Positions 24,176-42,623 of a stretch of DNA of 42,655 bases are shown one piece after another. The DNA is from a virus. How positions within the stretch are numbered: position 1 is the stretch's first letter; the number at the start of each line of letters is the position of its first letter. Location of the stretch: UHGV virus genome UHGV-0324172. One strand, 5' to 3'. The notes below the pieces were generated by a model, which saw only the letters and a program-made list of their open reading frames with translations, was not told where the DNA came from and did no database searches. Made by a program: the position numbers and the translations under genes.

Positions 24176-25438
24176 TTACGTAAGTATGCTAAGTTTATTC
24201 TGCCTCATGTCACGCTCTAGGGCGTATCTAGTGGCGTCAATTGTATGGTCGTTTTTATCTTCTAATTTAGGAATAATATCTCCATCTTTATCAGTTTGAT
24301 AATCTATGTTTTCAAATTCTCTTGCTATATTCGGTGTACGTTTTGGATCTATTATGATAGCTTCTAAATCAGATAACCATTGTTCACCATATTCTCTGCT
24401 ATCAGGTCCTTTTTTAACCGGTCTTACTTTTTTCATGCCATGTTCTTGCTTTAATTCAGCTATTGATTTAGGTTCGGCATGGTCAGCGTAAATGTCGTCT
24501 GACTGATATTTTCTTTTCCACATTTCGTTTGCATATTGCCTATTACTAATCTGAACACCGTAATATTCATCGATAGCGTAAATAACCCGTTTCTTTTTAT
24601 CATAATGCCAACGGACAAACGCTAACGGATCGTCAGCATATCCAAAGTCAAGGCCATTCCTTATGTTGTCAAAACCGTCAATCATTTCTTGGGGTATCGT
24701 TTCTATTTGTAAATTGTTAAACGGTACAACGCCACTCCCTATCGCTTCCCCCATATACTCCCAACGATAACGTTGTTCGTTACGTTCTTTCGCACTCTCT
24801 GCCTCTTGTATAAACTGTTTAGATATAAAAGGGTTATCTAAGTACGTTGAATGATGTACGAATGTATTATCCGGTTGGAATGAGGTTTCGTATTTTTTGT
24901 TAACCCACGATTGTTTTCTCTTAGGTGGATTGTAGCTAAAGAAAAACTTGTAGAACAATCCGTCATCTAATTCACCACGTAGCATAGAGTTAGTAATTGT
25001 TGTAACTTCGTCCTCTGTCTTAAATTCTGCCAACTCCTCTATCCACATGATAGAAAAAGGGAACCGACTATCTTTTAACGACTTTAATCGTTCAGGGTTC
25101 TGTGCCCCTCTAAAGATAATCCGATTCCCTCTGGGTACATATGTGATTTCCATTGGCGACACTTTAACTTTGAACAGGTGTGACACCTTTTGTTCTTCTA
25201 TCGCCCACTTGATTTGTTCAAACACTGATGTAGCTAATGTATTATCTGTCTTACGTACTACAACTGCATTCATAGGATAACGCATGATTAACTGTGTAAT
25301 GATAATAGATATGTCAGATGACTTACCACTACCACGTCCACCTTTAGCTACTATGTTGAGTTTCTCTCTATCCTTAGTTGCCTTCCATAAGCTATGAAAG
25401 TGTTTAGGTAACAGTTCGGACAGTTTAATTGATATCAT
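24176..25438 (-). CDS. terL: Terminase large subunit
   Basis: 420 aa. N-terminal ATPase Walker A (AKGGRGSGKS). C-terminal nuclease region. Overlaps the terS stop. Confidence 0.9.
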   Translation of the reverse strand: MISIKLSELLPKHFHSLWKATKDREKLNIVAKGGRGSGKSSDISIIITQLIMRYPMNAVVVRKTDNTLATSVFEQIKWAIEEQKVSHLFKVKVSPMEITYVPRGNRIIFRGAQNPERLKSLKDSRFPFSIMWIEELAEFKTEDEVTTITNSMLRGELDDGLFYKFFFSYNPPKRKQSWVNKKYETSFQPDNTFVHHSTYLDNPFISKQFIQEAESAKERNEQRYRWEYMGEAIGSGVVPFNNLQIETIPQEMIDGFDNIRNGLDFGYADDPLAFVRWHYDKKKRVIYAIDEYYGVQISNRQYANEMWKRKYQSDDIYADHAEPKSIAELKQEHGMKKVRPVKKGPDSREYGEQWLSDLEAIIIDPKRTPNIAREFENIDYQTDKDGDIIPKLEDKNDHTIDATRYALERDMRQNKLSILT

Positions 25439-25805
25439 CGTCGAAATGCACCGTCGCAGTCGTTTCGATTTGTTGTCTTTCTACAGGAGTATAACCTGTA
25501 CGATCCAATATATCTTTAGAGGCTTGATAGCGTACTAGCTCACTTTTAGCGTCTAATAAGTTAATCATCGTTTGTAAGGCTTTAGGTACCTGCTTAGACA
25601 AATGCTCTGCTTGGTAACCTTTAAAGCCTTCTCTGAATTTATCATTATGTTTCCAACGAGATATAGTAGAACGGTTAACGTCAATTTCAGCAGCTATTTC
25701 TCCCTCTGCTAAATCTGTTTCGTTCTTCAAGCGTATATATTCTTGTTGCTTCTTGGTTAATTCTAAGTACGCCCCGAATGTTGCGTTATTTTGCATGTTA
25801 GTCAT
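25425..25805 (-). CDS. terS: Terminase small subunit
   Basis: 126 aa with HTH-like N-terminal region (DVNRSTISRWKHNDK). Immediately upstream of terL with overlap. Confidence 0.8.
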   Translation of the reverse strand: MTNMQNNATFGAYLELTKKQQEYIRLKNETDLAEGEIAAEIDVNRSTISRWKHNDKFREGFKGYQAEHLSKQVPKALQTMINLLDAKSELVRYQASKDILDRTGYTPVERQQIETTATVHFDDDIN

Positions 25806-25841
25806 CGTATATTACCACCTACTTTACGTTATGCACTCTTT

Positions 25842-25876
25842 ATATTTTTAAAAAAGACACTGCGTAAACAGTGCCT
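25842..25876 (-). terminator. Hairpin + T-run (attenuator or terminator) about 40 nt upstream of terS
   Basis: Minus strand GGCACTG-TTTACG-CAGTGTC followed by TTTTTT. Confidence 0.4.
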
Positions 25877-25944
25877 AATGATTATGTTTTGTTATTTATT
25901 TGAGTTTATGTACTCATGTCACACCTCTATGTCACATCAATACA

Positions 25945-25979
25945 TAAAAAAAGTTACCCGTGTGTTCTCACGGATAACT
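25945..25979 (-). terminator. Strong rho-independent terminator in the rinA-terS leader
   Basis: Minus strand GTTATCCGTG-AGAACA-CACGGGTAAC (10-bp stem, one mismatch) followed by TTTTTTTAT. Confidence 0.6.
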
Positions 25980-26253
25980 TATTAAGGGAGGAGAAAAATT
26001 ACATGTTAAGTATTCATATCATCGTATCGGAAGCCGTGTTGTAAGATTCAATAAAACTACCCGCCACTCTGACGGATAGTTAAGCAATCGGATGTGCAAC
26101 GTCTAATCAAGGACGATAAACACTTATCCAATCACTTCGATATTGAATACCTCACCATAGTGCGAAAGGATAAACACTATGTCTTGTGAGGTAATTCTTA
26201 CAATATCATAATACACCGATTATAAACGGACTTACACACTTCAAAAGTCCACC

Positions 26254-26670
26254 CTACACATAACCTATGAATTCTGCCAATCTATTTATCATCGCGTCAC
26301 GTCGTCTTAATATGCTCGTCTTACTTGTACCGAAGTAGTCAGCTATATCCTCCCACTCACTGCAACCAATCGGACATTCCCAATATCTCAAACGCATTAA
26401 GTCTTGTGTATCTTCGTCCGATTCATAAATAAGTTTGTCTACACCTTTTACAATGTTACGTAAGTTGTTATAACGATTGTCACTTAACTTCTTAATTGAT
26501 TCTCTCTCAATAGGATTGCCTGGTATATTATTCTTACCTGCGCCTACATTCTCGGGTTCGTGGTTTTCTAGTAGTTCATACTCTCTTACTTTTAACTCTC
26601 GTCTGTAGCGTTCTATGTTCTTGATATAATCTTCTAACTTCTTTATATCATGTCGTTCAATCGTTATCAT
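26254..26670 (-). CDS. rinA: Late gene transcriptional activator, RinA/ArpU family
   Basis: 138 aa. C-terminal sigma-70 region-4-like HTH (YWECPIGCSEWEDIADYFGTSKTSILRRRDAMINRLAEFIG). Canonical position immediately upstream of terS. Confidence 0.75.
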   Translation of the reverse strand: MITIERHDIKKLEDYIKNIERYRRELKVREYELLENHEPENVGAGKNNIPGNPIERESIKKLSDNRYNNLRNIVKGVDKLIYESDEDTQDLMRLRYWECPIGCSEWEDIADYFGTSKTSILRRRDAMINRLAEFIGYV

Positions 26671-26687
26671 ACTTACCCTCCATTCCT

Positions 26688-26909
26688 TTAGTTTCCTTTT
26701 TTATTAATTCGCTTTTTGTATTCTTCGTACTTTAAATTTTGAAAATCATTACCGCCGTCATATTCATCCATTTTACTTAATATACTTTCTAAAGCTACAA
26801 TTTCACCGATTTTAACATGGGTACTACGGTCTTTATCGTTTTGCATCATCAAAATTAAACTAAGAACTAGAGTTTTTAATTTAATCCACTTGGATTTATA
26901 AAACATCAC
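26688..26909 (-). CDS. Hypothetical small protein with N-terminal hydrophobic segment
   Basis: 73-aa ORF. TM-like stretch LKTLVLSLILMM. Confidence 0.35.
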   Translation of the reverse strand: MMFYKSKWIKLKTLVLSLILMMQNDKDRSTHVKIGEIVALESILSKMDEYDGGNDFQNLKYEEYKKRINKKGN

Positions 26910-27037
26910 TTACCCTCCATTCTCCAACTTATCTTTAAGTCTTTTGACCTCATACTCTTTCACTTCTAACTGATGTTTTAGATCATTCTGTTCAAGTATC
27001 GAACCGAATAGAAGCAACACCAATATAATGATTGCTA

Positions 27038-27481
27038 TTACACCCCACATTGTTTGACCACCTCTAAATTAGGTTTGTGTTGTAGTACTTGTCCTCCACT
27101 TTTTGTAGCATGTGCTTTTGCCTCTGATAAGCTACGGAAAATACTAGCTTGCTCTAATCCTACAAACGTAAAATAAATACCATCGAAATGATCAGCTATT
27201 TCTATATGATTTGGTATATACATTTTCTTTAAAAATATATCTTTATTAACCTCGACAACATAAGTGCCTTGTTCGTTATTATCCTTATTTTTCAACCAAG
27301 ATACCTCTCTTTCTAAATGTAACTTATCTAATTGCAATCCATGTTTATCTTCCTGTAACTCATTAACTTTTTTTCTCTGCTTTAATCCACTTATATATAT
27401 AGCAAAAATACACAGTACTAACACAATTGTTACCGATAAAAAACTTATCCAAATCACTTTAATAACCTCCGTATATGCCAT
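27038..27481 (-). CDS. Hypothetical membrane-anchored protein
   Basis: 147 aa. N-terminal TM helix (VIWISFLSVTIVLVLCIFAIYI). Confidence 0.4.
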   Translation of the reverse strand: MAYTEVIKVIWISFLSVTIVLVLCIFAIYISGLKQRKKVNELQEDKHGLQLDKLHLEREVSWLKNKDNNEQGTYVVEVNKDIFLKKMYIPNHIEIADHFDGIYFTFVGLEQASIFRSLSEAKAHATKSGGQVLQHKPNLEVVKQCGV

Positions 27482-27629
27482 TTAAATGAGCGTGGTCGTG
27501 TTCGTCGAAGTCCTTAGGCACTTCCACCTCATCATTTGCAGTTAACTTATAGTACAACTCTCTACCAATCCATTTACCTAACTCGTACATTGCGATAGTG
27601 AACCATATCTTTAATATGCGTTTAATCAT
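27459..27629 (-). CDS. rinB: RinB-like small regulator (56 aa), not in the supplied track
   Basis: Manual translation: MIKRILKIWFTIAMYELGKWIGRELYYKLTANDEVEVPKDFDEHDHAHLNGIYGGY. It resembles staphylococcal phage RinB as recalled (AMYELGK...TANDEVEVP.DF). Start overlaps the stop of the 27622..27774 ORF (ATGATTAA). Confidence 0.5.
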   Translation of the reverse strand: MIKRILKIWFTIAMYELGKWIGRELYYKLTANDEVEVPKDFDEHDHAHLNGIYGGY

Positions 27630-27774
27630 CTAAATCATCTCCATGTTCGATATATTCTATAACGTGTTCCAACGCTGATTTATAAGTAAGTGTTATTGAA
27701 TCTTCCTGCTTTGATTCTTCAATATCGCTAATTACACTTTTTAATTTTCCAATTACTTCTTCACTACTTTTCAT
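27622..27774 (-). CDS. Hypothetical small acidic protein (50 aa), not in the supplied track
   Basis: Manual translation: MKSSEEVIGKLKSVISDIEESKQEDSITLTYKSALEHVIEYIEHGDDLDD. RBS GGAGTGAACGGA upstream. Translationally coupled to the RinB-like ORF. Confidence 0.3.
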   Translation of the reverse strand: MKSSEEVIGKLKSVISDIEESKQEDSITLTYKSALEHVIEYIEHGDDLDD

Positions 27775-27786
27775 TCCGTTCACTCC

Positions 27787-27990
27787 TTATCCCAATCTTT
27801 CTTGCAAACGATATAGTTTTCTAAGTTGTAATCTATCGTGCTGACTTAATATACGCTTTGCTTTCTCTTCTGCTTCTTCCTTATCCTCTGCTTCTACAAG
27901 TGTCATTTTCTCGTTAAATCTAGCTTGCTCGATGTGCTTGTGTATATGGCCTGTGCTATCTGTGAATTCTCTGATTAGGAATTGTTTCAC
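27787..27990 (-). CDS. Hypothetical small protein
   Basis: 67-aa ORF, charged/helical. Position only. Confidence 0.35.
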   Translation of the reverse strand: MKQFLIREFTDSTGHIHKHIEQARFNEKMTLVEAEDKEEAEEKAKRILSQHDRLQLRKLYRLQERLG

Positions 27991-28026
27991 TTCCCCAGCA
28001 CCTCTTTCACTTTTTCTAATATGTCT

Positions 28027-28449
28027 TTACTCCCCTGTGCTTCCGTATGCTCCACGTTCTGATTCTTCATCAAACTCTTGCACCTCCGTTGGCTCTGGTA
28101 ACATTACTGGCGCAATGACTAATTGTGCTAAACGTGTACCTGCTTTAACTACGATTGCCTCATCACCGATATTGTCTGTGATAATTCCAATTTCTTTGTT
28201 ATAAGTGTGATCGATTGTACCTAACGCTACACGTAACTTAGTTTTAAGTGAATTACCTGAACGTGGTCTCACTTGCGCCTCATATCCATATGCTAAATCA
28301 ATTGCAATGTGTGTTGGTACTACGACTGTACTATGTGCTGGAATTGTTGTATCTTCTGCGACATATAAATCTAATCCACTATCTGTTGGATTTGCTCTCG
28401 TTGGCAAGATTGCATTTTCTGATAATAATTTAATTGGTAAAATTCCCAT
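28027..28449 (-). CDS. dut: dUTP pyrophosphatase (trimeric dUTPase)
   Basis: Conserved dUTPase motifs (AILPTRANPTDSGLDLY, RPRSGNSLK, GTIDHTYNKEIGII, RLAQLVI). 140 aa, so it lacks the extra insertion of the longer phi11/80alpha-type Dut. Confidence 0.85.
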   Translation of the reverse strand: MGILPIKLLSENAILPTRANPTDSGLDLYVAEDTTIPAHSTVVVPTHIAIDLAYGYEAQVRPRSGNSLKTKLRVALGTIDHTYNKEIGIITDNIGDEAIVVKAGTRLAQLVIAPVMLPEPTEVQEFDEESERGAYGSTGE

Positions 28450-28668
28450 TTATTGTTCCTCCAAATCTTTTCTTTTATTCCAAATTTTTATAAGTTTTTC
28501 TGCATTATTGGTATGAACGTGCATCCATGTAGACGGTTGTATTTTGCAATTTTTATTAGTACATTCAATTAATAATGTATTAAAGCTATAACGTATATCC
28601 GGTAGACCACCACAAAATGGACATGGTTTAAATTTTGGACTACTCATCACTACCACGCTCCAAATCAC
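28450..28668 (-). CDS. Lar-family-like Zn-ribbon protein (possible restriction-alleviation / anti-restriction function)
   Basis: 72 aa. Motif FKPCPFCGG...C..C characteristic of the Lar restriction-alleviation family. Stop/start juxtaposed with dut. Confidence 0.4.
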   Translation of the reverse strand: MIWSVVVMSSPKFKPCPFCGGLPDIRYSFNTLLIECTNKNCKIQPSTWMHVHTNNAEKLIKIWNKRKDLEEQ

Positions 28669-29098
28669 TTATTTTATATTTTATAGCTTTAAATGCAGTC
28701 AGTAAGTTTCCAAAGTATTCAAACTCATTAGAATTTGATGCAAACTCTTGTCTTGTAGTTAACGTTTCTATTTTGTCTAATGTATATTCTTTTATCTCAT
28801 CAAACACCTCTGCCTTACGTTTAATATCTGCAATATCATTGATGAGTTCGTCGCGTTGTTTTTTAAACGACTTACACTGTTTAAATAATTCATGTATGAG
28901 CATTTCTTCTTTACTCATTACTTTTGATGTATGAGTTTGTAAAGGTGAATAAAAATCTAATATAAGCTGCCAACGTAAATCTACTGATCGTTTTGATGCG
29001 TCCACTAATTCACCAAATACACCGTCGTAGTCTAAATGGTTATTTTTAATATATTCCAATATCTTTTCTTTACTTTTCTCTGTCATCAACCATAGCAC
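28640..29098 (-). CDS. Hypothetical early protein
   Basis: 152-aa ORF. No motif recognised. Confidence 0.4.
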   Translation of the reverse strand: MLWLMTEKSKEKILEYIKNNHLDYDGVFGELVDASKRSVDLRWQLILDFYSPLQTHTSKVMSKEEMLIHELFKQCKSFKKQRDELINDIADIKRKAEVFDEIKEYTLDKIETLTTRQEFASNSNEFEYFGNLLTAFKAIKYKISDLERGSDE

Positions 29099-29471
29099 CG
29101 TCCTTCCAAATTAAAGTCATTGTGCCGTCGTCGTTTAAGATATAATAGTTATAATCACTTCTATCTAAAAACTGTCCGATACTACAATTGAAATTTATAT
29201 TAACTTCATTTAAATTGTTTCTATTGATAGATACTAATTTAGGTATCTCCGTTTCTTTCGTAATTTCTTCTTCAATTTCTACTGTGAAAGTGCATGAATG
29301 CGGGTTATAACTTATAACTTCATTTGCAATTATTTCTGGATCGAATGAGTAGTGTTCTTCGTTGTAATTAAACGTATAACCGTCTAACTCTACTTCCGTT
29401 TCTTCCTGCTCTAATAAATGCTTTAAAAATTCTTTAGGTGTCATCTCTACCTTACGTTTAATCTTTGCCAT
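29070..29471 (-). CDS. Conserved early protein, paralog A (same family as 31488..31862)
   Basis: Shares blocks with 31488..31862: N-terminal M-KIK-KVEMT, FTVEI-EEIT--T-IP, DG-TMTLIWK-G--V-D. Confidence 0.45.
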   Translation of the reverse strand: MAKIKRKVEMTPKEFLKHLLEQEETEVELDGYTFNYNEEHYSFDPEIIANEVISYNPHSCTFTVEIEEEITKETEIPKLVSINRNNLNEVNINFNCSIGQFLDRSDYNYYILNDDGTMTLIWKDGAMVDDREK

Positions 29472-29655
29472 TCCTTACACACTCCCTGTTCCTTTTTATG
29501 TCACACTCACTAACTTTCATCGTCACTCTACTTCCTGCTACCTTAACCACAAAGCCTTTAACACCTAGCTGTCGTAATTCACGCTGTATCTCTGTAGGTG
29601 TCTTGCCTTGTGTGTTGTATTTGTATCGTTGAGATACCGTGTCACTTAGCAGCAT
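29458..29655 (-). CDS. Hypothetical small basic protein
   Basis: 65-aa ORF overlapping neighbours by a few codons. Confidence 0.3.
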   Translation of the reverse strand: MLLSDTVSQRYKYNTQGKTPTEIQRELRQLGVKGFVVKVAGSRVTMKVSECDIKRNRECVRNGKD

Positions 29656-30256
29656 TTATTTTGTCCTTAACTTCTTTTTGTTTGTGTAATAATTTAACAA
29701 AGTTGATTCCTGCTTTAGTCAGGTCGCGATCAGTCGACGTTAAATTAAGTTTGTTAATGCGCACTAATTCTTTACGACTTACCAATGCTATATTTTCTTC
29801 GCTACAGTCTGACCTGTTTTGATTCAAATGTATTAAACAATATCCTTTGGGCACAGGTCCGTGCTTTTGTTCCCATAAATAATGTGTGTATTGTTTCCAG
29901 CATTCGTTTTTTGAACCTCGTTTTTTGATTTTTATAAACTTATAACCGTCAGTAGTGATTTTTATCGTTCCTAAAGGAAATGTGTTATCGGGCTTTTGTC
30001 CTTTCTTAAATTGAGTTTCAGCGCTTCTACCTCTGGAAGGAAAGCTTTTACCTTTGTTCCAAGAAGGCACACCTTTTTTAAACTTACAATCAACCCCACT
30101 TCTTATCCTTTTTCTCGAACAAAACCCTTTCATTTTATCTGTAGTAACATCAGTGCCAAACTCCTTATTAAACATTTCTGTCATTTCTTTCTTAGTTTTA
30201 CCTTTGATGTTATTACGAATATATTTTTCATGCTCATCAGTCCATACATGTCTCAT
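29642..30256 (-). CDS. HNH homing endonuclease (HNH_3 type with N-terminal basic DNA-binding region)
   Basis: C-terminal HNH_3 signature (YLWEQKHGPVPKGYCLIHLNQNRSDCSEENIALVSRKE). Free-standing in the early region, as is common for phage homing endonuclease genes. Confidence 0.7.
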   Translation of the reverse strand: MRHVWTDEHEKYIRNNIKGKTKKEMTEMFNKEFGTDVTTDKMKGFCSRKRIRSGVDCKFKKGVPSWNKGKSFPSRGRSAETQFKKGQKPDNTFPLGTIKITTDGYKFIKIKKRGSKNECWKQYTHYLWEQKHGPVPKGYCLIHLNQNRSDCSEENIALVSRKELVRINKLNLTSTDRDLTKAGINFVKLLHKQKEVKDKINAAK

Positions 30257-30261
30257 GGCTA

Positions 30262-30516
30262 TTACTCTCCTAACAACTTAGGGATTTCTGATTCTGCATC
30301 TAATTTTTCATCTTTAAACTTTTGTGCTTGCAGCACTAAACTGCCATTATTAATGATATTTTGAGCTACTTTAGAAACTGCACTAGATCTTTGTAACTCC
30401 TCTTTTAATTCTTCGCCTTTTAAATCTTCATCGCTTAATCTTTCTAATTGTGCAAATAAATGATTGTTTAAATCTGTCAATGTGTTTCTCATTTCATTAA
30501 CCCTCCCACTTCTCAA
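30262..30516 (-). CDS. Hypothetical small helical protein
   Basis: 84-aa ORF. Confidence 0.35.
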   Translation of the reverse strand: MRSGRVNEMRNTLTDLNNHLFAQLERLSDEDLKGEELKEELQRSSAVSKVAQNIINNGSLVLQAQKFKDEKLDAESEIPKLLGE

Positions 30517-30940
30517 ATGCTCTGTTTAGATACCAACGTGCTTTGTCTAAATCTTCTTTACCGTTCTTACGATTAGCTCGACTTATATACTTGATTGCAT
30601 TACCAATCGCAAATGCTAACTCTGGTTTGTAATCTTTAGTGACTTGCTCTATGAAGTCTATAATTTCCATATCTCCATACGTGTAATGCGACGGGTGGTT
30701 AACCTTGTCATCTAATGTCTTTTTAGTTCCTTCATTTCCATTAGGTAATGAGTAAAAATCATAACAATCATCAATAGTCCAAGTTCTCCCGTCAATTGCT
30801 TCTACATCAGCAACCCATCTATCTATATCAAGACTTGACTGAACTAAACGATAAACATTTTTTATTTGCACTGTAATTTCAACACCGTTAACTTCTTGGA
30901 TTCTGATTCTATCGCCTATAATCAAATCTTTAATGCTCAT
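30497..30940 (-). CDS. Conserved phage protein with HPSHY motif (DUF3310-like)
   Basis: 147 aa containing VNHPSHYTYGDMEIIDFIEQV. Family assignment from memory, not verified. Confidence 0.4.
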   Translation of the reverse strand: MSIKDLIIGDRIRIQEVNGVEITVQIKNVYRLVQSSLDIDRWVADVEAIDGRTWTIDDCYDFYSLPNGNEGTKKTLDDKVNHPSHYTYGDMEIIDFIEQVTKDYKPELAFAIGNAIKYISRANRKNGKEDLDKARWYLNRAFEKWEG

Positions 30941-31296
30941 GATCTAACCACCTTTCTAGGGAAGATGTCATTTTCCATAAGGTGCGTGCACCATTTACCA
31001 CGAGGGTGTTTTTGAGGCACTGTGAATAAATGTGGTTTCTTACGTTTCAATTCTTGTAATCTGCGTTGCTCCATTCTCTCTTTATAACTAGCAATTTCGT
31101 CCTCTTTAGGTTTCAAACTATCCCACTCACTACGTCTTACTCCAATAGGTGCTTCTATTGCATCTTCAAACTTCCAACCAGAAGCTAATCTTTGTCTTAA
31201 GATATCTGAATTAATATCTGCTTTTTTCATTTTCTCTACTACATCTGGTGTAATAGAGAAGTATTTATTTTTAACTCTCATTTTTGTCGCTTCCAT
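30937..31296 (-). CDS. Hypothetical early protein
   Basis: 119-aa ORF. 4-nt overlap with the upstream gene. Confidence 0.4.
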   Translation of the reverse strand: MEATKMRVKNKYFSITPDVVEKMKKADINSDILRQRLASGWKFEDAIEAPIGVRRSEWDSLKPKEDEIASYKERMEQRRLQELKRKKPHLFTVPQKHPRGKWCTHLMENDIFPRKVVRS

Positions 31297-31488
31297 TCAC
31301 TCCACCTCTACCAATTCAATTAGTTTAAAATCTTCGCTCATTAACTCTTTTTCAGGATTCTTACTGATTAAATCTAAAATGCGTTCCTTTTCATCACTTG
31401 CAGTAATTTGATTGTTTACCCAAACTGGATACTTACATCTAACTTTCATTGTTGCTTCGACTGTGACTGTTTCTTCTCTATTAGCCAT
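31297..31488 (-). CDS. Hypothetical small protein
   Basis: 63-aa ORF, tightly packed between neighbours. Confidence 0.3.
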   Translation of the reverse strand: MANREETVTVEATMKVRCKYPVWVNNQITASDEKERILDLISKNPEKELMSEDFKLIELVEVE

Positions 31489-31862
31489 TACTCATCACCG
31501 ACCAATTCGCCATATTTCCAGATGAGTGTCATTGTATTTCCGTCTTTTAACCAGAATTCTCTACTAAAGTCGTCTTTTACTTGTTCAATAGAATTCCCGA
31601 ACCATTGCGTTGCATCATTATCTTGAAATATCTCAAGCATTTCTGGAATTTTTGTATTTTCAGTAATCTCTTCTCCAATTTCTACTGTGAAAGTTTCATC
31701 TTTATCAACTTCATGCTCTATAAAAACTCTTTCGGCCATATCAAAATGCACATAATGACCATCAATATTGCTATAAAACATTTCACTTTTAATTCCATTC
31801 TTCCATGCCCATGTAATCAACTCTGGTAATGTCATTTCAACTTTCTTTTTAATCTTTACCAT
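31488..31862 (-). CDS. Conserved early protein, paralog B (same family as 29070..29471)
   Basis: See paralog A. Shared N-terminal MVKIKKKVEMT and C-terminal GNTMTLIWKYGELV blocks. Confidence 0.45.
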   Translation of the reverse strand: MVKIKKKVEMTLPELITWAWKNGIKSEMFYSNIDGHYVHFDMAERVFIEHEVDKDETFTVEIGEEITENTKIPEMLEIFQDNDATQWFGNSIEQVKDDFSREFWLKDGNTMTLIWKYGELVGDE

Positions 31863-32265
31863 CCTTCATCTTCTCCTTCTTACGTTTTTTGCGTACCTTG
31901 ATTAGTTCTTCATACGTTATCCACTCTTGACCTGTGTATTTAGGCGCTTTACATATCCACGTGAGTGGTACTTCTCTGTTTTGATATCTAAATATCTTTG
32001 ATTTTATTTTGGCTTCTGGAGTAGGCATACCTTTTACATCTATCACTTCGATTAGCTTGCCATCTTTCCATAAAGCAAAATCTGCTACATAGTTAATAGA
32101 TCTGAAATTTTCAAATTTAGGTTGTAATTCGTACTTAGGTTGCAACTCTATATGGTCATATCCCTTACCTAAGTTACGTTCTAAATATTGGTAGTAGTCG
32201 CATTCAATTTTGCTATCGAACACAAAACCTTTATATTCAACTTTTTTAGAATTGTATTTACTCAA
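31849..32265 (-). CDS. Conserved phage protein (DUF1064-like, replication-associated)
   Basis: 138 aa with KVEYKGFVFDSKIECDYYQYL block and a C-terminal Lys-rich tail. Position next to the helicase loader. Family from memory. Confidence 0.4.
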   Translation of the reverse strand: MSKYNSKKVEYKGFVFDSKIECDYYQYLERNLGKGYDHIELQPKYELQPKFENFRSINYVADFALWKDGKLIEVIDVKGMPTPEAKIKSKIFRYQNREVPLTWICKAPKYTGQEWITYEELIKVRKKRKKEKMKDGKD

Positions 32266-32274
32266 AACTCCACC

Positions 32275-32520
32275 TCAAAATAATAATTCGTTAATTGTCA
32301 TCTGTTGTTGCAGTTCTTCTTTTCTGAACAACTTGTGCTTACGTTTCAGTTTTTCTAACTCATCTTTCGTTACTGTTCCTGAAAATGTGTTTCTAAAGTG
32401 TATGCCTGCATAGTTACCTAACTTATAAGTATCTTCTCCTAACGGCGTTACACTGCACATCTCCCAACCGTCAATCTGATATAACGTGTATTGCTTTTTA
32501 AGTCCGTCGATAAGCCCCAT
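32275..32520 (-). CDS. Hypothetical small protein
   Basis: 81-aa ORF. Confidence 0.35.
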   Translation of the reverse strand: MGLIDGLKKQYTLYQIDGWEMCSVTPLGEDTYKLGNYAGIHFRNTFSGTVTKDELEKLKRKHKLFRKEELQQQMTINELLF

Positions 32521-32674
32521 TAGGACACCTCCGTTATCGCCTGTCTGTTACTTTTTTCTTCTAGCTTGTCATTAATTAGCTTGATAAGTTTTTCTTGATT
32601 ACCATTCGCACAATCAAGCATTTTTTGAGCATACACATCGGAACACTCAAGTATTTGTATAACATTCTCTTTCG

Positions 32675-33445
32675 TTACCATGCGTCACGCTCCCTGTAAT
32701 CATCACCTAGCACTTTTACTGTCCTAGCGTTATGTTTCATTCTTGAATTGATCCTTTGCCAATTCATATTTTGATTAAGTTCTTTATCACTAAAATTTGT
32801 AGTGAAGATATTATTCTTTCCAACTCTGTTATCTACAATGCTGAATAGTTTATTCAATGTGTGTTCAGTGTTTTCTACACCTATATCGTCGAGTACTAGC
32901 AAATCTATGTTACTTAGCAGTTGCACAAGTTCGTCAGTCGTTTCTGAAGCGTTCTTGTTGTATGTCGCTTTAATACGCTCCATTAACATTGGAATGTGCA
33001 TAAAAGCCACTGAATATCCTTCGTTTTTAATCGCTTTAGCAATGGCATATGCTATATGGCTTTTTCCGGTACCATATGAGCCTTGTAAGATTAAAGACTT
33101 AGGATTGTCTACCGAGAATGTTTTGACGTACTCTATGGCTGTTTTTTTGGCGTATACTTGCTTTTCGTTTTGTGGTTTGTAATTATTTACTGTTGCATCT
33201 CTTAGCGAACCGTTTACGGTAGATTGATTGAAAATATTATTTATATATTTTTGTTTGCGTTTCTTCTCTGCTTCTTTACCAGCTTGTATCATTGAACAGT
33301 CACAACCATGTCTAAACTCATGCCCGTTACTAAACTTGTAATAGTCGTATGTGTTTCCACACTTATTACATTTAAGGTTGTGTTGTTCTTCTACGATGTT
33401 TTTACTAGGTTTGATATTTCTAGCTAAACTTTCCATTGATTGCAT
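32675..33445 (-). CDS. DnaC/IstB-like helicase loader ATPase
   Basis: Walker A (GSYGTGKSHIAYAIA). Walker B (LLVLDDIG). N-terminal Cys-rich region. Directly downstream of the replisome organiser. Confidence 0.85.
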   Translation of the reverse strand: MQSMESLARNIKPSKNIVEEQHNLKCNKCGNTYDYYKFSNGHEFRHGCDCSMIQAGKEAEKKRKQKYINNIFNQSTVNGSLRDATVNNYKPQNEKQVYAKKTAIEYVKTFSVDNPKSLILQGSYGTGKSHIAYAIAKAIKNEGYSVAFMHIPMLMERIKATYNKNASETTDELVQLLSNIDLLVLDDIGVENTEHTLNKLFSIVDNRVGKNNIFTTNFSDKELNQNMNWQRINSRMKHNARTVKVLGDDYRERDAW

Positions 33446-33457
33446 TTATAATCACTC

Positions 33458-34237
33458 CTAGTCCCAATAACTCTCGTCATACTTCATTCTTTCTAATTGA
33501 TCCATGCCACTCGGTTGTAATTCTTGGTTAAGATAACCCTCAAACTTAGTACCGAATAATGTTTCAGGTCTTAGGTACTTCTCCATGTTTGTGCCTTTCC
33601 ACTCAGCAACTTTGTTATCTATAACTCTTTTAAAGTCATCTATTGAAAAACCTTCATCAGTTCTTGCTCGTATGACTGTTTGATTCTTCTTAGTAGTAGA
33701 TTTGTAATTCTTACCTGTTTGTTGGTTAAGGTAGTCAATTACATCTTTGTAAGGATACGTAGTCGGGTTGCCCGACAATATATTTCCATCAATATAAGTA
33801 CTATCAATATTAGTTAAATCATTATTAATACTATTATTATTAGTAGTTCGCCCTTTTCGGTTTTCCGTTTTTCCGTTTTCCGAAAAACCGTTTGCCGATA
33901 ATCCGTTTTCCGAAAATGGCATTTCGGTAGGCTTTTCATAAACTAAATATTCGTACCCGTTAAAAATGCCGTTGTCAGTCCTTTTTTGTATTCTATGAAC
34001 GTACTTACTTTTTATTAACTCTTGTATGCCACTGTTTATAGATTTCTGACCGTCGTTCATGTGCTTAACCACTTCTGATGTGTATATTTGCCAATTGTCA
34101 GGTCTGCTTAAGAAATAAAGCAGTATCCCTTTTGCTTTGGCGCTCAATTTATTATCAAAAACAAAAGCTTTATGGACTGTTACGAAATCCCCGCTTTCTT
34201 TTATCGTTCTAAATGTTGCCATCTTTCTCACTTCCAT
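33458..34237 (-). CDS. Phage replisome organiser / DnaD-like replication initiator with an internal origin (iterons inside the coding sequence)
   Basis: N-terminal replisome-organiser domain (FVTVHKAFVFDNKLSAKAKGILLYFLSRPDNWQ). Repeated ENG/FSENG peptide encoded by DNA iterons at 33851..33932. Followed by a DnaC-like loader. Confidence 0.75.
   Translation of the reverse strand: MEVRKMATFRTIKESGDFVTVHKAFVFDNKLSAKAKGILLYFLSRPDNWQIYTSEVVKHMNDGQKSINSGIQELIKSKYVHRIQKRTDNGIFNGYEYLVYEKPTEMPFSENGLSANGFSENGKTENRKGRTTNNNSINNDLTNIDSTYIDGNILSGNPTTYPYKDVIDYLNQQTGKNYKSTTKKNQTVIRARTDEGFSIDDFKRVIDNKVAEWKGTNMEKYLRPETLFGTKFEGYLNQELQPSGMDQLERMKYDESYWD
33851..33932. repeat. Candidate phage origin: 7-8 direct iterons with core TTT(T)CCG/TTTCGG, including two copies of TTTTCCGAAAA
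   Basis: Sequence CCTTTTCGGTTTTCCGTTTTTCCGTTTTCCGAAAAACCGTTTGCCGATAATCCGTTTTCCGAAAATGGCATTTCGG lies inside the organiser gene, in frame with a repeated peptide. This ori-in-rep-gene architecture is known from lambda O and many Firmicute phages. Confidence 0.6.
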
Positions 34238-34454
34238 TCAGTAACTCTGTTACAGTAATATTCATGTCATCAGCGATTAATTTAAGCCTTTTAGCATTAG
34301 GTTTTGAAATATCTTTTTCCCACCTACTAACGATACTGTCTGACGCATTGTCGATTAATTCTCCGAACTCTCTCATGTTCAGACCTTTATCTTGTCTGTG
34401 TTGTTTAATACGGCTACCTAATGTCATTACTATCACTCCCCGTACAATAGCCAT
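34209..34454 (-). CDS. XRE-family HTH regulator
   Basis: HTH_XRE pattern (SRIKQHRQDKGLNMREFGELIDNASDSIVSRWEKDISKPNAKRLKLIADDMNITVTELL). Likely start at the internal Met (MTLGS...). Confidence 0.55.
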   Translation of the reverse strand: MAIVRGVIVMTLGSRIKQHRQDKGLNMREFGELIDNASDSIVSRWEKDISKPNAKRLKLIADDMNITVTELLNGSEKDGNI

Positions 34455-34663
34455 TCTGGTGTTGTTTTAAATATGAATGCTATCAATTTTATTTTTTCAA
34501 GATTAGGAATTCTTTTACCTTCTTCCCATTGTTTTATGGAGAAAGGAGATACATACAAGATTGCAGCGAATTCGTTTATATCAAAATTTCTTTGTAATCT
34601 TATTTGTTTGATTCTATTAGCAATTTCTTTCTTGTTTTCTTTAGTTATTACTCTCGAATTCAT
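34433..34663 (-). CDS. XRE-family HTH regulator
   Basis: HTH_XRE pattern (IANRIKQIRLQRNFDINEFAAILYVSPFSIKQWEEGKRIPNLEKIKLIA). Confidence 0.5.
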   Translation of the reverse strand: MNSRVITKENKKEIANRIKQIRLQRNFDINEFAAILYVSPFSIKQWEEGKRIPNLEKIKLIAFIFKTTPEWLLYGE

Positions 34664-35327
34664 TTTTAGCTCCTTTCAACATGGCGTTTAAACGATCATC
34701 AACTTTTATCCAGCTATCTTGTAAGATATATTTTTCATCAAAAGACTTAACGCCTATGTTGTGCTGTTCTTGGTGGTGTCGTCTGCATAAAGCCAACACT
34801 TCATAATCGTAATGCTGCATCTTCTTACGGTTAGCACCACGTCCTATTGCGTAGTGATGTGCAAGGTCAGCGTTTGATTCCCCACATAGTACACAGTTTC
34901 GATTGACCGTTGCCCAGTACAACATAGCTTTATCTCCACTTAGCAATTTGCTCGTTTCTACTCTCATTGGTATTTGGTGATGGAACATAAAAGCTATAAT
35001 CAACTCTATTAATTCACTCGCTATTCTCATTGAACAGTCACGTAAACTTATTTCTTCGTAACCATTCATAATTTCAAGTTCTGCTTGAAACCTTTTCCTT
35101 AGTGATTCCACAGGTTCTCCCCAGTGCAACTCAATATCTCTACATAATGCAAAAATCTTTTTACGTTGTTCTATTGATAATTTTTTGTTATCAGGTACTT
35201 CAACTTCTGCAATGAGTGAGTAACCATTTTCTAATAAGTCGATATGACTTTGTTCTAATTCAACACCAGTCGCAACGACGGAATAAGTACCGTCGTTATC
35301 TCGCTGGTATCTTGTAATACGCTGCAT
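34641..35327 (-). CDS. HNH-motif protein (DUF968-like) of the replication module
   Basis: CVLCGESNADLAHHYAIGRGANRKKMQHYDYEVLALCRRHHQEQH contains a C-x2-C...HH...C-x2-HH-x3-H HNH arrangement. Confidence 0.5.
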   Translation of the reverse strand: MQRITRYQRDNDGTYSVVATGVELEQSHIDLLENGYSLIAEVEVPDNKKLSIEQRKKIFALCRDIELHWGEPVESLRKRFQAELEIMNGYEEISLRDCSMRIASELIELIIAFMFHHQIPMRVETSKLLSGDKAMLYWATVNRNCVLCGESNADLAHHYAIGRGANRKKMQHYDYEVLALCRRHHQEQHNIGVKSFDEKYILQDSWIKVDDRLNAMLKGAKNEFESNN

Positions 35328-35338
35328 TTAATCACGTC

Positions 35339-35893
35339 CTAGAAAGGTAAATCATCATCACTAATTTCAATCGGTCCATTAGCATTGGCAAATGGATTTG
35401 ATTGTTGACTCATTGGCGTTTGCTGTCCGTTGGCTTGTTGTTCACGTTGTTTCATTTCATCAGTTTTAGGTTCGGGTTTATTTACGATTTCGTCACCTTT
35501 GTTCCAAACTTTTACAAAAGATAATCTGACGAAATATTTACCTTGATCTTCGTTAAACTTATTTTTAAGTACGATTGTTCCCATTTTGTTTATTAATCTG
35601 TCTGTATCGAAAGTTAAATCAGGTAAATTAAGTTGAATTCCTAGTCTGCTTAATAATTCTATATATTGTTTTTCTTGGAAGTCTTGTTGGAATGGTGGTA
35701 CGAATTGATTATGTTTGTATTGTTTACCTTCGTTATTTTCAAATACGATAGTGAAATATCTTCCTTCTTTGTCATTAAATTCAACATCTTTAACTTTAAC
35801 TGTGAATTCTCCTGCTCCTAAGAAGTCTCCACCTTTCATAAATGCCTCTTGATTAGTTTCTTTAGTGTGTTGTGCTTGTCCTGTAATTTTCAT
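35339..35893 (-). CDS. SSB-like protein with canonical acidic SSB C-terminal tail (DDDLPF) but atypical N-terminal domain
   Basis: C-terminal Q/N-rich linker ending ISDDDLPF (the client-protein-binding tip of SSBs). Located next to the Sak4-like ATPase, as in Sak4-SSB recombination modules. Confidence 0.5.
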   Translation of the reverse strand: MKITGQAQHTKETNQEAFMKGGDFLGAGEFTVKVKDVEFNDKEGRYFTIVFENNEGKQYKHNQFVPPFQQDFQEKQYIELLSRLGIQLNLPDLTFDTDRLINKMGTIVLKNKFNEDQGKYFVRLSFVKVWNKGDEIVNKPEPKTDEMKQREQQANGQQTPMSQQSNPFANANGPIEISDDDLPF

Positions 35894-35924
35894 AATTTTT
35901 ATACCGTCCTTTATGTTATTTTTG

Positions 35925-35930
35925 TATAAT
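35925..35930 (+). promoter_or_regulatory. Candidate -10 (TATAAT, preceded by TG) for the plus-strand gene 35958..36650
   Basis: TTTGTATAAT at 35921..35930, 28 nt upstream of the GTG start. No convincing -35. Confidence 0.3.
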
Positions 35931-35957
35931 ATATTTAATTCTAATTTTTGAAAGTGA

Positions 35958-36650
35958 GTGATATTTTTGAAACGCGAAATTCGGTTGTTAGATACTCAAG
36001 GAACTTCACACGGAAATTATGCGATAGAATTACCAAATTATTGTCCTTGGTGTAAATCTAAGATCAGTCCTTCTATATTAAGTTCAACTCCATTTGATAC
36101 AAGTAATAGAAATTTTCCAGTATCATTAACTCTACAATGCCCTAGTTGTAATAAGCACTTTTTGCAAACCTATAAGGTTACTTTGTCACCGGCAGGTTAC
36201 ATTAATGAACTTAAAATAGATAATGACAAACCTATGCCTGAAACATTGTTCGAATATCCAAGTGAAATTGATGAAATAAGTAAAGAATTCAAAAATATTA
36301 TTACCCAAAGTTCAAATGCAGAAGCTTTAAAATTTGATCATTTAGCTGGTATTGGATATAGAAAGGCTATTGAATTTCTTGTTAAAGATTATTTGATTAA
36401 ATGCAAAAATAAAGATGAAACTAAAATATCAAACCAACAACTTGGGAAATGCATTTCCGATATTGATGATACAAGAATTAATAATTTAGCACGCGCAGCT
36501 AGTTGGATTGGAAATGATGAAACGCATTATGTTAGAAAACACATTGATAAAGATGTTCAAGATTTAAAGAAATTTTTACACGCTTTAACCGCTTTAGTAA
36601 GTTTAGAAATTAGTATCTCTGAAGCAAGCGAATTTATTAATAAAGATTAA
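35958..36650 (+). CDS. Zn-ribbon (CPWC...CPSC) + DUF4145-like (putative HEPN-type) protein: lone plus-strand gene embedded in the minus-strand early operon. Candidate abortive-infection/defence or exclusion gene
   Basis: Two CxxC pairs near the N-terminus. C-terminal block AGIGYRKAIEFLVKDYLIK...ISDIDDTRINNLARAASWIGNDETHYV matches the DUF4145 pattern (R.A.E.L.KD...I..L...GN...H). Orientation opposite to all neighbours. GTG start. Confidence 0.55.
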   Translation: MIFLKREIRLLDTQGTSHGNYAIELPNYCPWCKSKISPSILSSTPFDTSNRNFPVSLTLQCPSCNKHFLQTYKVTLSPAGYINELKIDNDKPMPETLFEYPSEIDEISKEFKNIITQSSNAEALKFDHLAGIGYRKAIEFLVKDYLIKCKNKDETKISNQQLGKCISDIDDTRINNLARAASWIGNDETHYVRKHIDKDVQDLKKFLHALTALVSLEISISEASEFINKD

Positions 36651-36808
36651 ATATTTTTTTCAAATATAAATGTGCCATTTAAGTCATAATATCTTTCAAC
36701 TTTCCTAATAGGATCTTCGTTTCCATTACCTTTAAGACATATGATTTTAATTAATTTAACTACATCAACTGCTTCTGGTGGTTGATGTGTTATATCTCTT
36801 TTTTTCAT
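36647..36808 (-). CDS. Hypothetical small protein (53 aa), not in the supplied track
   Basis: Manual translation: MKKRDITHQPPEAVDVVKLIKIICLKGNGNEDPIRKVERYYDLNGTFIFEKNI. Strong RBS AAGGAAGG 9 nt upstream. Convergent 4-nt stop overlap (TTAA) with the plus-strand gene. Confidence 0.35.
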   Translation of the reverse strand: MKKRDITHQPPEAVDVVKLIKIICLKGNGNEDPIRKVERYYDLNGTFIFEKNI

Positions 36809-36836
36809 AGTATATTACCTTCCTTATTAGTTATTT

Positions 36837-37628
36837 TTAATTTCCATTTCTGATTGCTTGTACTACGTCCGTAATGCTAGGGTTTACAAATTTCTTATTT
36901 TTAATTGTTATATTGCTTGCATGTCTTATTTTGGTTTCAAATAAGTTAGAGGGTTCAGCGTTAAGTACATACTCATATGACTTTTGTCCGTTTTCCTCAT
37001 GCTCTTCAATTGTCATTCTTGCAAGTACATCTGATTGACTTACAACTGCTTTTCTTATTTGATCTTGTGCCTCAATCGTGATAGTGGGATTAATCGTGCT
37101 GCCTTCATCGTCTTTATCTTTGTTGATACCTTCATGACCGCTTATTGCTAAATGAAATTGATATTGTTCTTGTAACTTAGAAACATATCTGTACATATGC
37201 ACAATGCGTGTAGCACATTCTCCCCAATCATTGAATGTAGGCTTTTTTGTCTTACCATTCATGATGTCGTCAATAGTGATATCGCGTAGTTTCTGTATTG
37301 TTTCAATCACTACTACATCTATTCGTTTTCCGTTTTCTCTTAGTTTCTCAATTACTTGAGGTAGCATTTTTATTACATAAGCAAAATGTTTATAATTTTT
37401 TACTTGTACAACTGCACCATCTTCTGTAACTGTTGTTCCATCTTCATTAATATCAAGCACAAGTGCGTTGTTATCTTTTGTTAAAAAGGTTGTTTTACCT
37501 GTACCGAATTTTCCGTAGATAGCGAATTTATAAAATTTGTTAGCATTTTGTTTGCTGATATCTTTAACCCCTAGTTGAGTTAGGATATCTTGCTCTTGTT
37601 TTTCTTCAGTCATACTCAACCTCCTCAT
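36837..37628 (-). CDS. Sak4-like RecA-fold AAA ATPase (phage single-strand annealing/recombination ATPase)
   Basis: Walker A (AIYGKFGTGKTTF). Walker B-like (VVVIETIQ). Core-only RecA-like size (263 aa). Next to the SSB-like gene. Confidence 0.7.
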   Translation of the reverse strand: MRRLSMTEEKQEQDILTQLGVKDISKQNANKFYKFAIYGKFGTGKTTFLTKDNNALVLDINEDGTTVTEDGAVVQVKNYKHFAYVIKMLPQVIEKLRENGKRIDVVVIETIQKLRDITIDDIMNGKTKKPTFNDWGECATRIVHMYRYVSKLQEQYQFHLAISGHEGINKDKDDEGSTINPTITIEAQDQIRKAVVSQSDVLARMTIEEHEENGQKSYEYVLNAEPSNLFETKIRHASNITIKNKKFVNPSITDVVQAIRNGN

Positions 37629-37890
37629 ATTCAGTTGTTTCAGTTACTTTCTTTTTAATTGCTATGTGTTTTGTCATGTCGATACTCACATCTTCTAGTC
37701 CTGCAAATTCTCTTGCTCTCCGTCTATCTCTTGAATAAGAAGTATCTTCTTCGTTGTTAGGTTTATTAGTGATATACAAGTCAAAAGGAGCGTCTTTCAG
37801 TTTAATTAGATATGTCACTGTTTCTTTCAATGCCAACCACTCCTTTATGCAGCATGTCGATTGTTCTATCCATGACTTTAATTGTTTCAC
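37606..37890 (-). CDS. Hypothetical small early protein
   Basis: 94-aa ORF. Confidence 0.35.
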   Translation of the reverse strand: MKQLKSWIEQSTCCIKEWLALKETVTYLIKLKDAPFDLYITNKPNNEEDTSYSRDRRRAREFAGLEDVSIDMTKHIAIKKKVTETTEYEEVEYD

Positions 37891-38077
37891 TTTGTGTTTC
37901 GCATGATTCTATAGCTTTTCTGAAATCTTTTCTAAGTTCAAAATATCTATCGCACATATCTTCGTAACGTTTGTTTAAATAATCGTAATCGCTTTGCAAG
38001 AAATCTAAATCTGTTTGGCTCTTGATTAGTTGAGAGTATTCTTCTCTAGTCATCTTGACTGTGATTAACTCTTGCAT
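37802..38077 (-). CDS. Hypothetical small helical early protein
   Basis: 91-aa ORF. Overlaps the downstream ORF in another frame. Confidence 0.35.
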   Translation of the reverse strand: MQELITVKMTREEYSQLIKSQTDLDFLQSDYDYLNKRYEDMCDRYFELRKDFRKAIESCETQSETIKVMDRTIDMLHKGVVGIERNSDISN

Positions 38078-38414
38078 TTTCTCTCCTCCACTTGTATATT
38101 TAAGTTGTATATTTTAGTTAGTGTTTGACTGTTACTTGTTGGCGCAAGTTTCAGTCTTTTTTGTTATCTCAAGCCACTTCTCCCAGAAGAAACTGCTGAA
38201 AATAAGGGTTAACATTGAAAATGCTATTACCGTAAAGAAACCACCTCCTAAAAGTAATGTGATAATCATTGCGATAAACATCGTCATGTAGCTTAATAGA
38301 TATTTCATTTATCATCCTCTCCTTTCATTTCTAAAAGTTTTTCGATATATCCTCTCTCTAATGCGAAATCGAACAGCATTTGTTGAATGTGTTCAGGCAT
38401 TACAATCACTCCTT

Positions 38415-39155
38415 TTACTGACCGTTTTCAATCTTTGTTTCTAATTGTTTAATTCTGTACAACGTAGCTTGTGACGGGAACCAGTTAGCGACCATTGACA
38501 GAACATCATCAAAGTGTTTTTGTCTTACGTTTGTTCTTGATGTTGCGCCTGTCATCTTTTTGACTTCTGAATTGATATCTCGGAATAATTCACTTCGTTG
38601 TTTTTGATTTGTAATTGCATGTATCTTTTGGATATGAGCAACTCGTTGATTAATTGTTCTGGATAACAAGTTGTAATCTCCTGTGTCTAACTTTTGATTT
38701 TCTTTCAAATCAATAACATCTGCTTTAACTGTTGCGATTTCTTCTTTAGTTTGTTTTTGTGCGTCGAACATAAGTTGTAATGCGTCCATTGGATCACTAG
38801 GAACTTGATAAGAACCTGTTTTACGAATAGATGGTAATACTTCGTTAGTTATCCAACGTTTGAACGCTTTGGCTTTTTCTTTAATACTTCTATTGTTGCT
38901 TTGTCGTGCTGCGTCTATTACTAATGTGTACAAACCAGATTCATTAATTAAAGAAGCTTTTTGATATCTTCCGGTGCGGTCCTGAATTGGGACTACACGA
39001 ACATCTTCTTTATCGATATGATCTTGTATTGCTTTCGCTCCTCTTGAGTAACCTAAGATGTCAGCCACATCTTTTCCTACAAAGTAAGGTTCGTCGTCTA
39101 TGGATAACGTTCTTACTGGTAATTCTTCAAAATTGAATGTTTGTAATTCGTTCAT
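38415..39155 (-). CDS. ant: Antirepressor (BRO-N / Ant family)
   Basis: N-terminal BRO-N motif (FNFEELPVRTLSIDDEPYFVGKDVADILGY). 246 aa. Directly downstream of cro. Confidence 0.8.
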   Translation of the reverse strand: MNELQTFNFEELPVRTLSIDDEPYFVGKDVADILGYSRGAKAIQDHIDKEDVRVVPIQDRTGRYQKASLINESGLYTLVIDAARQSNNRSIKEKAKAFKRWITNEVLPSIRKTGSYQVPSDPMDALQLMFDAQKQTKEEIATVKADVIDLKENQKLDTGDYNLLSRTINQRVAHIQKIHAITNQKQRSELFRDINSEVKKMTGATSRTNVRQKHFDDVLSMVANWFPSQATLYRIKQLETKIENGQ

Positions 39156-39166
39156 AGTTACGCCTC

Positions 39167-39433
39167 CTAAAATTTCGGTTTTTCCGAATCATCGCCTAAA
39201 AAAATATCATCAACTTTGATTCCTAAAACTTCTGCTAATTTGTGTAAAGTTTTGAAATTAGCGTTCTGAACATTTTTTTGAGTTTCTTCAAGTCTGTAAA
39301 TAGTTCTTTCAGTAACTCCAGAATCCCTTGATAACTTAGCTTTGCTCATTCCTTTAAGTGATCTCCACTGACGAATTGTCAACTTAAGTTTTTCTTTTTC
39401 GTTTACTGTCATTTTGTTTAACACCCCTCTCAA
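39167..39433 (-). CDS. cro: Cro-like XRE HTH regulator (likely true start at the Met at 39412)
   Basis: HTH (LKGMSKAKLSRDSGVTERTIYRLE). Divergent from the cI-like gene. The RBS GAGAGGGG precedes the internal ATG rather than the first one. Confidence 0.7.
   Translation of the reverse strand: MRGVLNKMTVNEKEKLKLTIRQWRSLKGMSKAKLSRDSGVTERTIYRLEETQKNVQNANFKTLHKLAEVLGIKVDDIFLGDDSEKPKF
39174..39188. promoter_or_regulatory. Operator-like inverted repeat TTCGG-TTTTT-CCGAA between cro and ant
   Basis: Same half-sites and spacing as the TTCGG-TAATT-CCGAA site at 39457..39471 in the cI/cro intergenic region. Confidence 0.45.
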
Positions 39434-39578
39434 TCAAGTTAACTACATGATAACATTTCGGTAATTCCGAAGTCAATACTTTTATTTCATTTTTTTCGAA
39501 ATTATTTTCGGAAAATCTGTTGTACATTTCCGGAAATAATGTATAATATAGGTAGAAACTTTCCAGGAGGTACAACAA
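39434..39578. promoter_or_regulatory. Divergent cI/cro switch region: candidate promoters and operator palindromes
   Basis: Plus-strand promoter: -35 TTGTAC (39520..39525), 17-bp spacer, -10 TATAAT (39543..39548), RBS AGGAGG. Minus-strand promoter: -35 TTGACT (revcomp of 39471..39476) and -10 TATCAT (revcomp of 39446..39451). Palindromes: TTCGGTAATTCCGAA (39457..39471), TTTCGAAA (39493..39500), TTTTCGGAAAA (39506..39516), ATTTCCGGAAAT (39527..39538, between the -35 and -10). Confidence 0.6.
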
Positions 39579-39893: not shown

Positions 39894-39906
39894 GGGGAGA
39901 TAATAA

Positions 39907-41189: not shown

Positions 41190-41237
41190 AAAATGGGTAG
41201 CATGCCTACCCTTATTATTTTTTTACTTTTTTAAGGG

Positions 41238-42617: not shown

Positions 42618-42623
42618 CTTATG

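Follow-up and report, generated by a model that had tools for sequence, protein, structure and literature searches.

A short gene in the early region of a temperate staphylococcal phage raises two questions: what kind of dUTPase (Dut) does it encode, and could the product, which lacks the insert of the phi11 and 80alpha enzymes, derepress the Stl repressor of SaPIbov1-type islands? Very probably, the protein is a minimal dUTPase of the canonical homotrimeric kind that belongs to the PH15/CNPH82 lineage and would not act as an effective SaPIbov1 derepressor.

The gene lies in the UHGV virus genome UHGV-0324172, analysed here as one stretch of 42,655 nucleotides, referred to below as the window. 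The window represents a temperate S. epidermidis siphovirus of the Rockefellervirus type; its bases 1-25000, which form the structural half, are 100% identical to vB_SepiS-phiIPLA7, and its early region (25001-42655) is mosaic, with segments from other S. epidermidis phages. Read in the direction of transcription, the genes of the minus strand are, in order, anti-repressor, Sak4-like annealase, SSB, replication initiator, DnaC-like loader, resolvase, nucleotide kinase, HNH endonuclease, Lar-like protein, dut, DUF1381, RinB, and RinA-like activator. The features that place dut within the genome are as follows.

28027..28449 including the stop codon, minus strand: dut, PH15-type insert-less homotrimeric-type dUTPase (ORF list, profiles, and model)
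28458..28462, minus strand: Shine-Dalgarno sequence GGAGG, 8 nt 5' of the dut ATG (read directly from the sequence)
28450..28668, minus strand: gene for a Lar-like restriction alleviation protein of 72 aa, upstream of dut (PF14354, E=3.2e-8)
27459..27629, minus strand: RinB homologue, downstream of dut (PF06116, E=2.8e-15)
26254-26670, minus strand: RinA-like regulator (phrog_36)
41238-42617, plus strand: ORF matching regions annotated as integrase in related phages (comparison with related phages)

The position of dut relative to rinB is common to phi11, 80alpha, PH15, and CNPH82, and RinB marks the dut slot of staphylococcal siphoviruses. In PH15 and CNPH82, as in the window, dut lies upstream of both rinB and rinA. 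The upstream neighbour differs; where the window has the Lar-like gene, CNPH82 and PH15 have a DUF1024 gene or a small hypothetical one. A promoter and terminator scan around dut returned a number of sites not above that obtained with shuffled sequence, and the tRNA and Rfam scans of the window were both empty.

The dut reading frame encodes 140 aa and extends on the minus strand from an ATG at 28449 to a TAA stop ending at 28027. The ATG abuts the TAA stop of the upstream 72-aa reading frame, and both are read in the same frame. Fusion of the two genes in homologues of 150-215 aa was considered and rejected; these homologues are longer through heterogeneous, unrelated extensions at the N-terminus or through frameshifts at the C-terminus, as gene-calling artefacts would produce.

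The product matches the Pfam dUTPase family PF00692 (E=1.3e-27, 96.6 bits, cut-off 22) and PHROG 135, also dUTPase (E=1e-53), and it scores above the cut-offs of both TIGR00576 (118.7 bits against 102.55) and the equivalog model NF001862 (106.3 bits against 103). None of the other reading frames scanned in the window matched a dUTPase family. AlphaFold2, given 47 homologues, produced a monomer model with a mean pLDDT of 88.9 that shows the all-beta jelly-roll fold of dUTPases. The best 50 matches found for this model in the PDB with Foldseek are all dUTPases, with TM scores of 0.76-0.81 normalised to the query; the top structures are the trimeric dUTPases of 80alpha, phi11, human, Arabidopsis, and M. 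tuberculosis (TM about 0.8). A dimeric all-alpha phage dUTPase was ruled out, the protein having a Pfam match of the trimeric type alone and an all-beta model. By family, motifs, fold, and genome context, the product of 28027-28449 is a dUTPase of the homotrimeric type, and it is predicted to form a trimer and to be catalytically active.

All five dUTPase motifs were found in the protein by alignment.

28366..28389, minus strand: motif I, PTDSGLDL, residues 21-28 (alignment)
28249..28269, minus strand: motif II, RPRSGNS, residues 61-67, with R63 and S64 binding phosphate (alignment)
28186..28221, minus strand: motif III, GTIDHTYNKEIG, residues 77-88, with the catalytic D80 and Y83 (alignment)
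28117..28140, minus strand: motif IV, GTRLAQLV, residues 104-111 (alignment)
28033..28056, minus strand: motif V, RGAYGSTG, residues 132-139 (alignment and homologue listing)

They supply the catalytic Asp and Tyr of motif III, motif II's Arg and Ser, the Arg and Gln of motif IV, and the glycine-rich C-terminal arm of motif V. We propose, from the conservation of these motifs and from the fold, that the window Dut hydrolyses dUTP to dUMP and pyrophosphate and so would keep uracil out of replicating phage DNA. Catalysis would be carried out by R63 and S64 (motif II), D80 and Y83 (motif III), R106 and Q109 (motif IV), and the C-terminal arm R132...Y135-G-S-T-G (motif V). The gene, which lies among the early genes a short way upstream of rinB and the RinA-like activator, would thus provide a housekeeping phage dUTPase.

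Two of the motifs depart from the form seen in phi11 and 80alpha. Motif III reads Y-N-K-E in the window Dut versus Y-H-G-N in these two, and the variant is kept throughout the family. Motif V lacks two residues relative to the usual R-x4-F-G-S-T-G, and a Tyr stands where that form has Phe. The exact string RGAYGSTG occurs in 75 of the 120 homologues listed, and the remaining forms retrieved have the same short length; a short motif V is, judged by these sequences, a family-wide trait of the PH15-type Duts. Among 149 diverse representatives, which gave 112 motif V matches, the spacer has two residues in 9 matches, three in 16, and four in 87.

These departures bear on a very improbable reading, in which the protein would be a catalytically impaired member of the dUTPase fold with a regulatory or moonlighting role. 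The spacing R-x2-Y-G-S-T-G instead of R-x4-F-G-S-T-G, seen in so few of the diverse matches, would favour it, as would the replacement of Gly by Lys in motif III. Against it, every residue directly involved in catalysis is present, and the score exceeds the NCBIfam equivalog cut-off. The short spacing recurs in other lineages, and a Tyr at the lid also occurs in 3so2, there within a motif V of the usual length. Moreover, hundreds of sequences from staphylococcal phages and prophages keep the variant strictly, suggesting that purifying selection acts on a functional C-terminal arm. The shortening of motif V shifts its Arg with respect to the aromatic residue of the lid, so that full catalytic competence of the window Dut is a prediction from sequence. 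The probability that the protein is instead a dCTP deaminase, or a bifunctional dCTP deaminase-dUTPase, can be regarded as negligible. It is suggested by a weak match to the Pfam DCD family (PF22769, E=0.001, 19.6 bits), but this score lies below the Pfam cut-off of 27, and the dCTP deaminase identity was rejected on that account. The protein is also too short, the TIGR02274 profile spanning 180 positions; it carries the dUTPase-specific motifs III and V, and its best structural matches are all dUTPases. The preferred reading thus remains a working dUTPase of minimal size.

The region that bears on the insert lies between motifs III and IV, where phi11 and 80alpha carry motif VI. The window Dut was aligned with the phi11 Dut (AAL82253), 80alpha gp32, PH15 ph62, CNPH82 cn60, the Dut of IME1365_01, and phiIPLA5 gp63, and the insert segment was measured between the conserved Asn that follows motif III and the initial Gly of motif IV. 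It comprises 12 residues in the window Dut and in the PH15-type proteins, versus 38 in phi11, 39 in 80alpha, and 50 in phiIPLA5. The window Dut thus has no motif VI insert at all, and a short turn occupies the site.

28156..28170, minus strand: tight turn IGDEA, residues 94-98, at the site of the motif VI insert of phi11 and 80alpha (alignments and AlphaFold2 model)

In the model this turn joins the strands formed by residues 86-93 and 99-101. The profiles reflect the same difference, as TIGR00576 and NF001862 match the window Dut in a single contiguous stretch but the phi11 Dut in two. The distance between motifs III and IV is 27 in 112 of the 120 close homologues listed, and this spacing is by far the commonest among the 149 diverse representatives taken at 50% identity, the insert-bearing forms making up a long tail. 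Judged by the sequences sampled, the 26-38 extra residues of the phi11, 80alpha, and phiIPLA5 Duts are therefore the exception among these relatives. The initial annotation had described a short trimeric dUTPase devoid of the 80alpha/phi11-type insert, which the alignment confirms. Its further statement, that the 140-aa protein has all core motifs, holds for their presence and needs qualifying for motif V, with its two missing residues and its Tyr for Phe.

The closest relatives of the window Dut come from phages of coagulase-negative staphylococci and from further staphylococcal sources. It is 94% identical to the Dut of IME1365_01, 92% to that of IME-SA4, about 75% to those of CNPH82 and CNPx, and 72-73% to that of PH15; identity to the Duts of Twort-like myoviruses is 55-59%. 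The proteins of the S. epidermidis phages PH15 (ph62, ABI21781) and CNPH82 (cn60, YP_950658) and of the S. haemolyticus phage IME1365_01 are, like the window Dut, insert-less, 140-141 aa long, and endowed with the motif RGAYGSTGE. These three differ from the window Dut by point substitutions alone; motif IV, for example, contains TRL in the window and ERL in PH15. The window Dut belongs to the PH15 type, defined by a length of 140-141 aa, a motif III-IV spacing of 27, a motif V of the form R-[GS]-x-[YF]-G-S-T-G, and an identity of about 70% or more to the Dut of PH15. Eighty phage records match it at E<=1e-30, and those that are annotated are nearly always labelled dUTPase. A large protein collection gave 7717 matches at E<=1e-10, with 852 members in the top cluster; proteins named 'dUTP diphosphatase' come from S. 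hominis, S. capitis, S. haemolyticus, S. epidermidis, S. pasteuri, S. simulans, Mammaliicoccus, and others. It is also worth mentioning that S. aureus phage 37 (AY954958 / NC_007055, 41806-42225) encodes an insert-less Dut of the PH15 type, 73.6% identical to the window Dut.

More distant comparisons set the PH15 type apart from the Duts for which Stl binding has been described. The trimeric Duts of phi11 and 80alpha (PDB 4GV8, 3ZEZ, 6H4C) share with the window Dut the fold, the five motifs, and the slot in the genome, but they carry motif VI and a motif V of the usual length with Phe, neither of which the window Dut has. Identity over the shared columns is 39%, and the window Dut lies outside the highly conserved core of the S. 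aureus phage Duts. The cellular Duts of human, M. tuberculosis, and shrimp (PDB 7PWJ, 8C8I, 7DLV) are minimal like the window Dut and have no insert between motifs III and IV. The human enzyme, among the closest relatives of known structure, is about 41% identical to the window Dut, above the value for phi11, but its motif V, R-G-S-G-G-F-G-S-T-G, has the canonical length, unlike that of the window Dut. For these cellular proteins the evidence concerns Stl binding in vitro or in heterologous settings, not induction of a SaPI by a helper phage.

PH15-type Duts are already annotated in many phages, the gene being routinely recognised, and for the PH15 homologue the failure of an insert-less Dut to induce SaPIbov1 was published as early as 2010, the original source being Tormo-Mas 2010. 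In three secondary sources, the insert-less PH15 Dut is given as unable to induce SaPIbov1 (PMC4914113 Maiques et al., PMC6770826, PMC10815766).

The initial annotation held that phage Duts derepress Stl by way of an additional motif, a view that has been superseded. In crystal structures Stl binds trimeric Duts mainly via motifs I-V, and insert-less Duts bind it as well. In the co-crystal of the phi11 Dut with Stl, helix alpha8 of the repressor fills the active site and mimics dUTP (PMC6695447). The contacts described are D81 and Y84 of motif III, R64 of motif II, K133 of motif IV, and H21 and D24 of motif I, and motif VI contributes one only, I110 (PMC6695447). The human and M. tuberculosis Duts, which have no motif VI, form 1:1 complexes with Stl as phi11 does, the insert-less fly Dut is reported to interact with Stl, and motif V embraces the repressor, adding affinity (PMC9927489). 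The PDB matches found with Foldseek also include the insert-less Dut-Stl complexes 7pwj and 8c8i and the shrimp complex 7dlv. Removal of motif VI has different effects in the two S. aureus phage proteins: the phi11 Dut keeps Stl binding and induces weakly (PMC4914113, PMC6770826), whereas the 80alpha Dut shows neither detectable Stl binding nor induction (PMC4914113). The contrast between the two traces to a patch of three residues in motif IV (PMC4914113).

The core of the Stl-binding surface is conserved in the window Dut. R63 and S64 correspond to R64 and S65 of phi11, D80 and Y83 to D81 and Y84, and R106 in motif IV to K133 of phi11 and R134 of 80alpha. D23, the equivalent of phi11 D24, which contacts Y106 of Stl, is also kept. 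At the periphery the match is lost, with I14, T17, and N20 in the positions of the phi11 contacts R15, E18, and H21. Of these, R15 and E18 are not decisive, since phiIPLA5 gp63 lacks both and still induces. The initial annotation predicted that the window Dut would not induce SaPIbov1-type islands. This agrees with the published non-induction by the PH15 Dut (72% identical, 141 aa) and is probably correct, but its rationale is incomplete. The behaviour of the PH15 Dut cannot be attributed to the missing insert alone, because its core is only about 39% identical to the phi11/80alpha type and its motif V is shorter. Non-induction by PH15 has served as an argument that motif VI is needed; with about 60% of the core positions and the length of motif V differing from phi11 and 80alpha, the PH15 type is not a clean test of motif VI.

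It is most likely, by analogy with the PH15 Dut, that the window Dut is not an effective derepressor of SaPIbov1-type Stl. Since the core contact residues are conserved, it may be bound weakly by Stl in vitro. A stronger form of this, in which a normal dUTPase would bind SaPIbov1-type Stl through its catalytic motifs and either induce weakly to moderately or have its activity inhibited by Stl, is unlikely, although several observations speak for it. Stl is a substrate mimic that touches motif II's Arg and Ser, the Asp and Tyr of motif III, and the basic residue of motif IV, all kept in the window Dut; insert-less Dut-Stl complexes have been solved, and the phi11 Dut deprived of motif VI retains binding and some induction. 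It is opposed by the PH15 Dut, which has the same motifs and is reported as non-inducing, and by the 80alpha Dut minus motif VI, which has an Arg-type motif IV like the window Dut and no detectable Stl binding. The loss of the three peripheral contacts also argues against it, and with its shorter motif V the protein may 'embrace' Stl less tightly. A further reading, improbable on the present evidence, regards the short PH15-type Duts as 'escape alleles' that islands governed by SaPIbov1-like Stl (ShoCI794_SEPI and ShaCI51-48, for example) would maintain by selective pressure in phages of coagulase-negative staphylococci, or as cognate inducers of another island repressor in these species. If they were escape alleles, the loss of motif VI, the short motif V, or both would cut the affinity for Stl and leave catalysis intact. 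Such an arms race would fit the pattern of the dut slot, as among otherwise near-identical phages phiIPLA7 has no trimeric Dut there, phiIPLA5 a long one, and the window a short one.

The state of the slot was established by comparing phiIPLA7 (region 36000-42123) and phiIPLA5 (region 38000-43581) with the window. The slot upstream of rinB varies in these near-identical S. epidermidis phages, phiIPLA5 having an insert-bearing Dut of 180 aa and the window its Dut of 140 aa. In the phiIPLA7 slot no trimeric dut is annotated, and neither trimeric Dut gave a significant tblastn match there. The phiIPLA5 protein, gp63, shares with the window Dut the S. epidermidis host, the phage genus, and the genome slot. 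It differs in having a 50-residue segment at the insert site, where the window Dut has 12 residues, and in its phi11-type core, which is 67% identical to phi11 versus 43% to the window Dut.

This distinction matters for the one apparent counterexample. Induction of SaPIbov1, and of two SaPIbov1-like islands from coagulase-negative staphylococci, has been reported for a trimeric Dut of S. epidermidis phage 'IPLA6' (Bowring 2017, PMC5779228); this 'IPLA6 Dut' is the sole S. epidermidis phage Dut reported as a SaPIbov1 inducer. Its identity with the window protein was considered and rejected. The primers designated IPLA5_0063 encode the ends MSKKLEIKL... and ...GFGSTGF, which are those of phiIPLA5 gp63, the insert-bearing protein of 180 aa. 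There is consequently no conflict between the report of Bowring 2017 and the non-induction by PH15-type Duts. As regards the labels, the text and Table 1 of PMC5779228 speak of the 'IPLA6 Dut' and the primers bear the name IPLA5_0063; the extracted column headings are ambiguous between dimeric and trimeric, and the sequence is that of a trimeric Dut with an insert.

Other genes of the window phage may also be relevant to SaPI induction. A Sak4-like ssDNA-annealing protein is encoded upstream in the early cluster.

36837-37628, minus strand: Sak4-like ssDNA-annealing protein (phrog_124, E=6.8e-57)

Sak4 recombinases are reported as inducers of SaPI2, whose Stl targets phage recombinases (Bowring 2017, PMC5779228). 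The window phage might therefore induce SaPI2-type islands whatever its Dut does. Finally, the gp32 dUTPase of 80alpha is labelled 'Na/K ATPase' in RefSeq NC_009526 (1895-2407 of the region compared), which looks like a misannotation.
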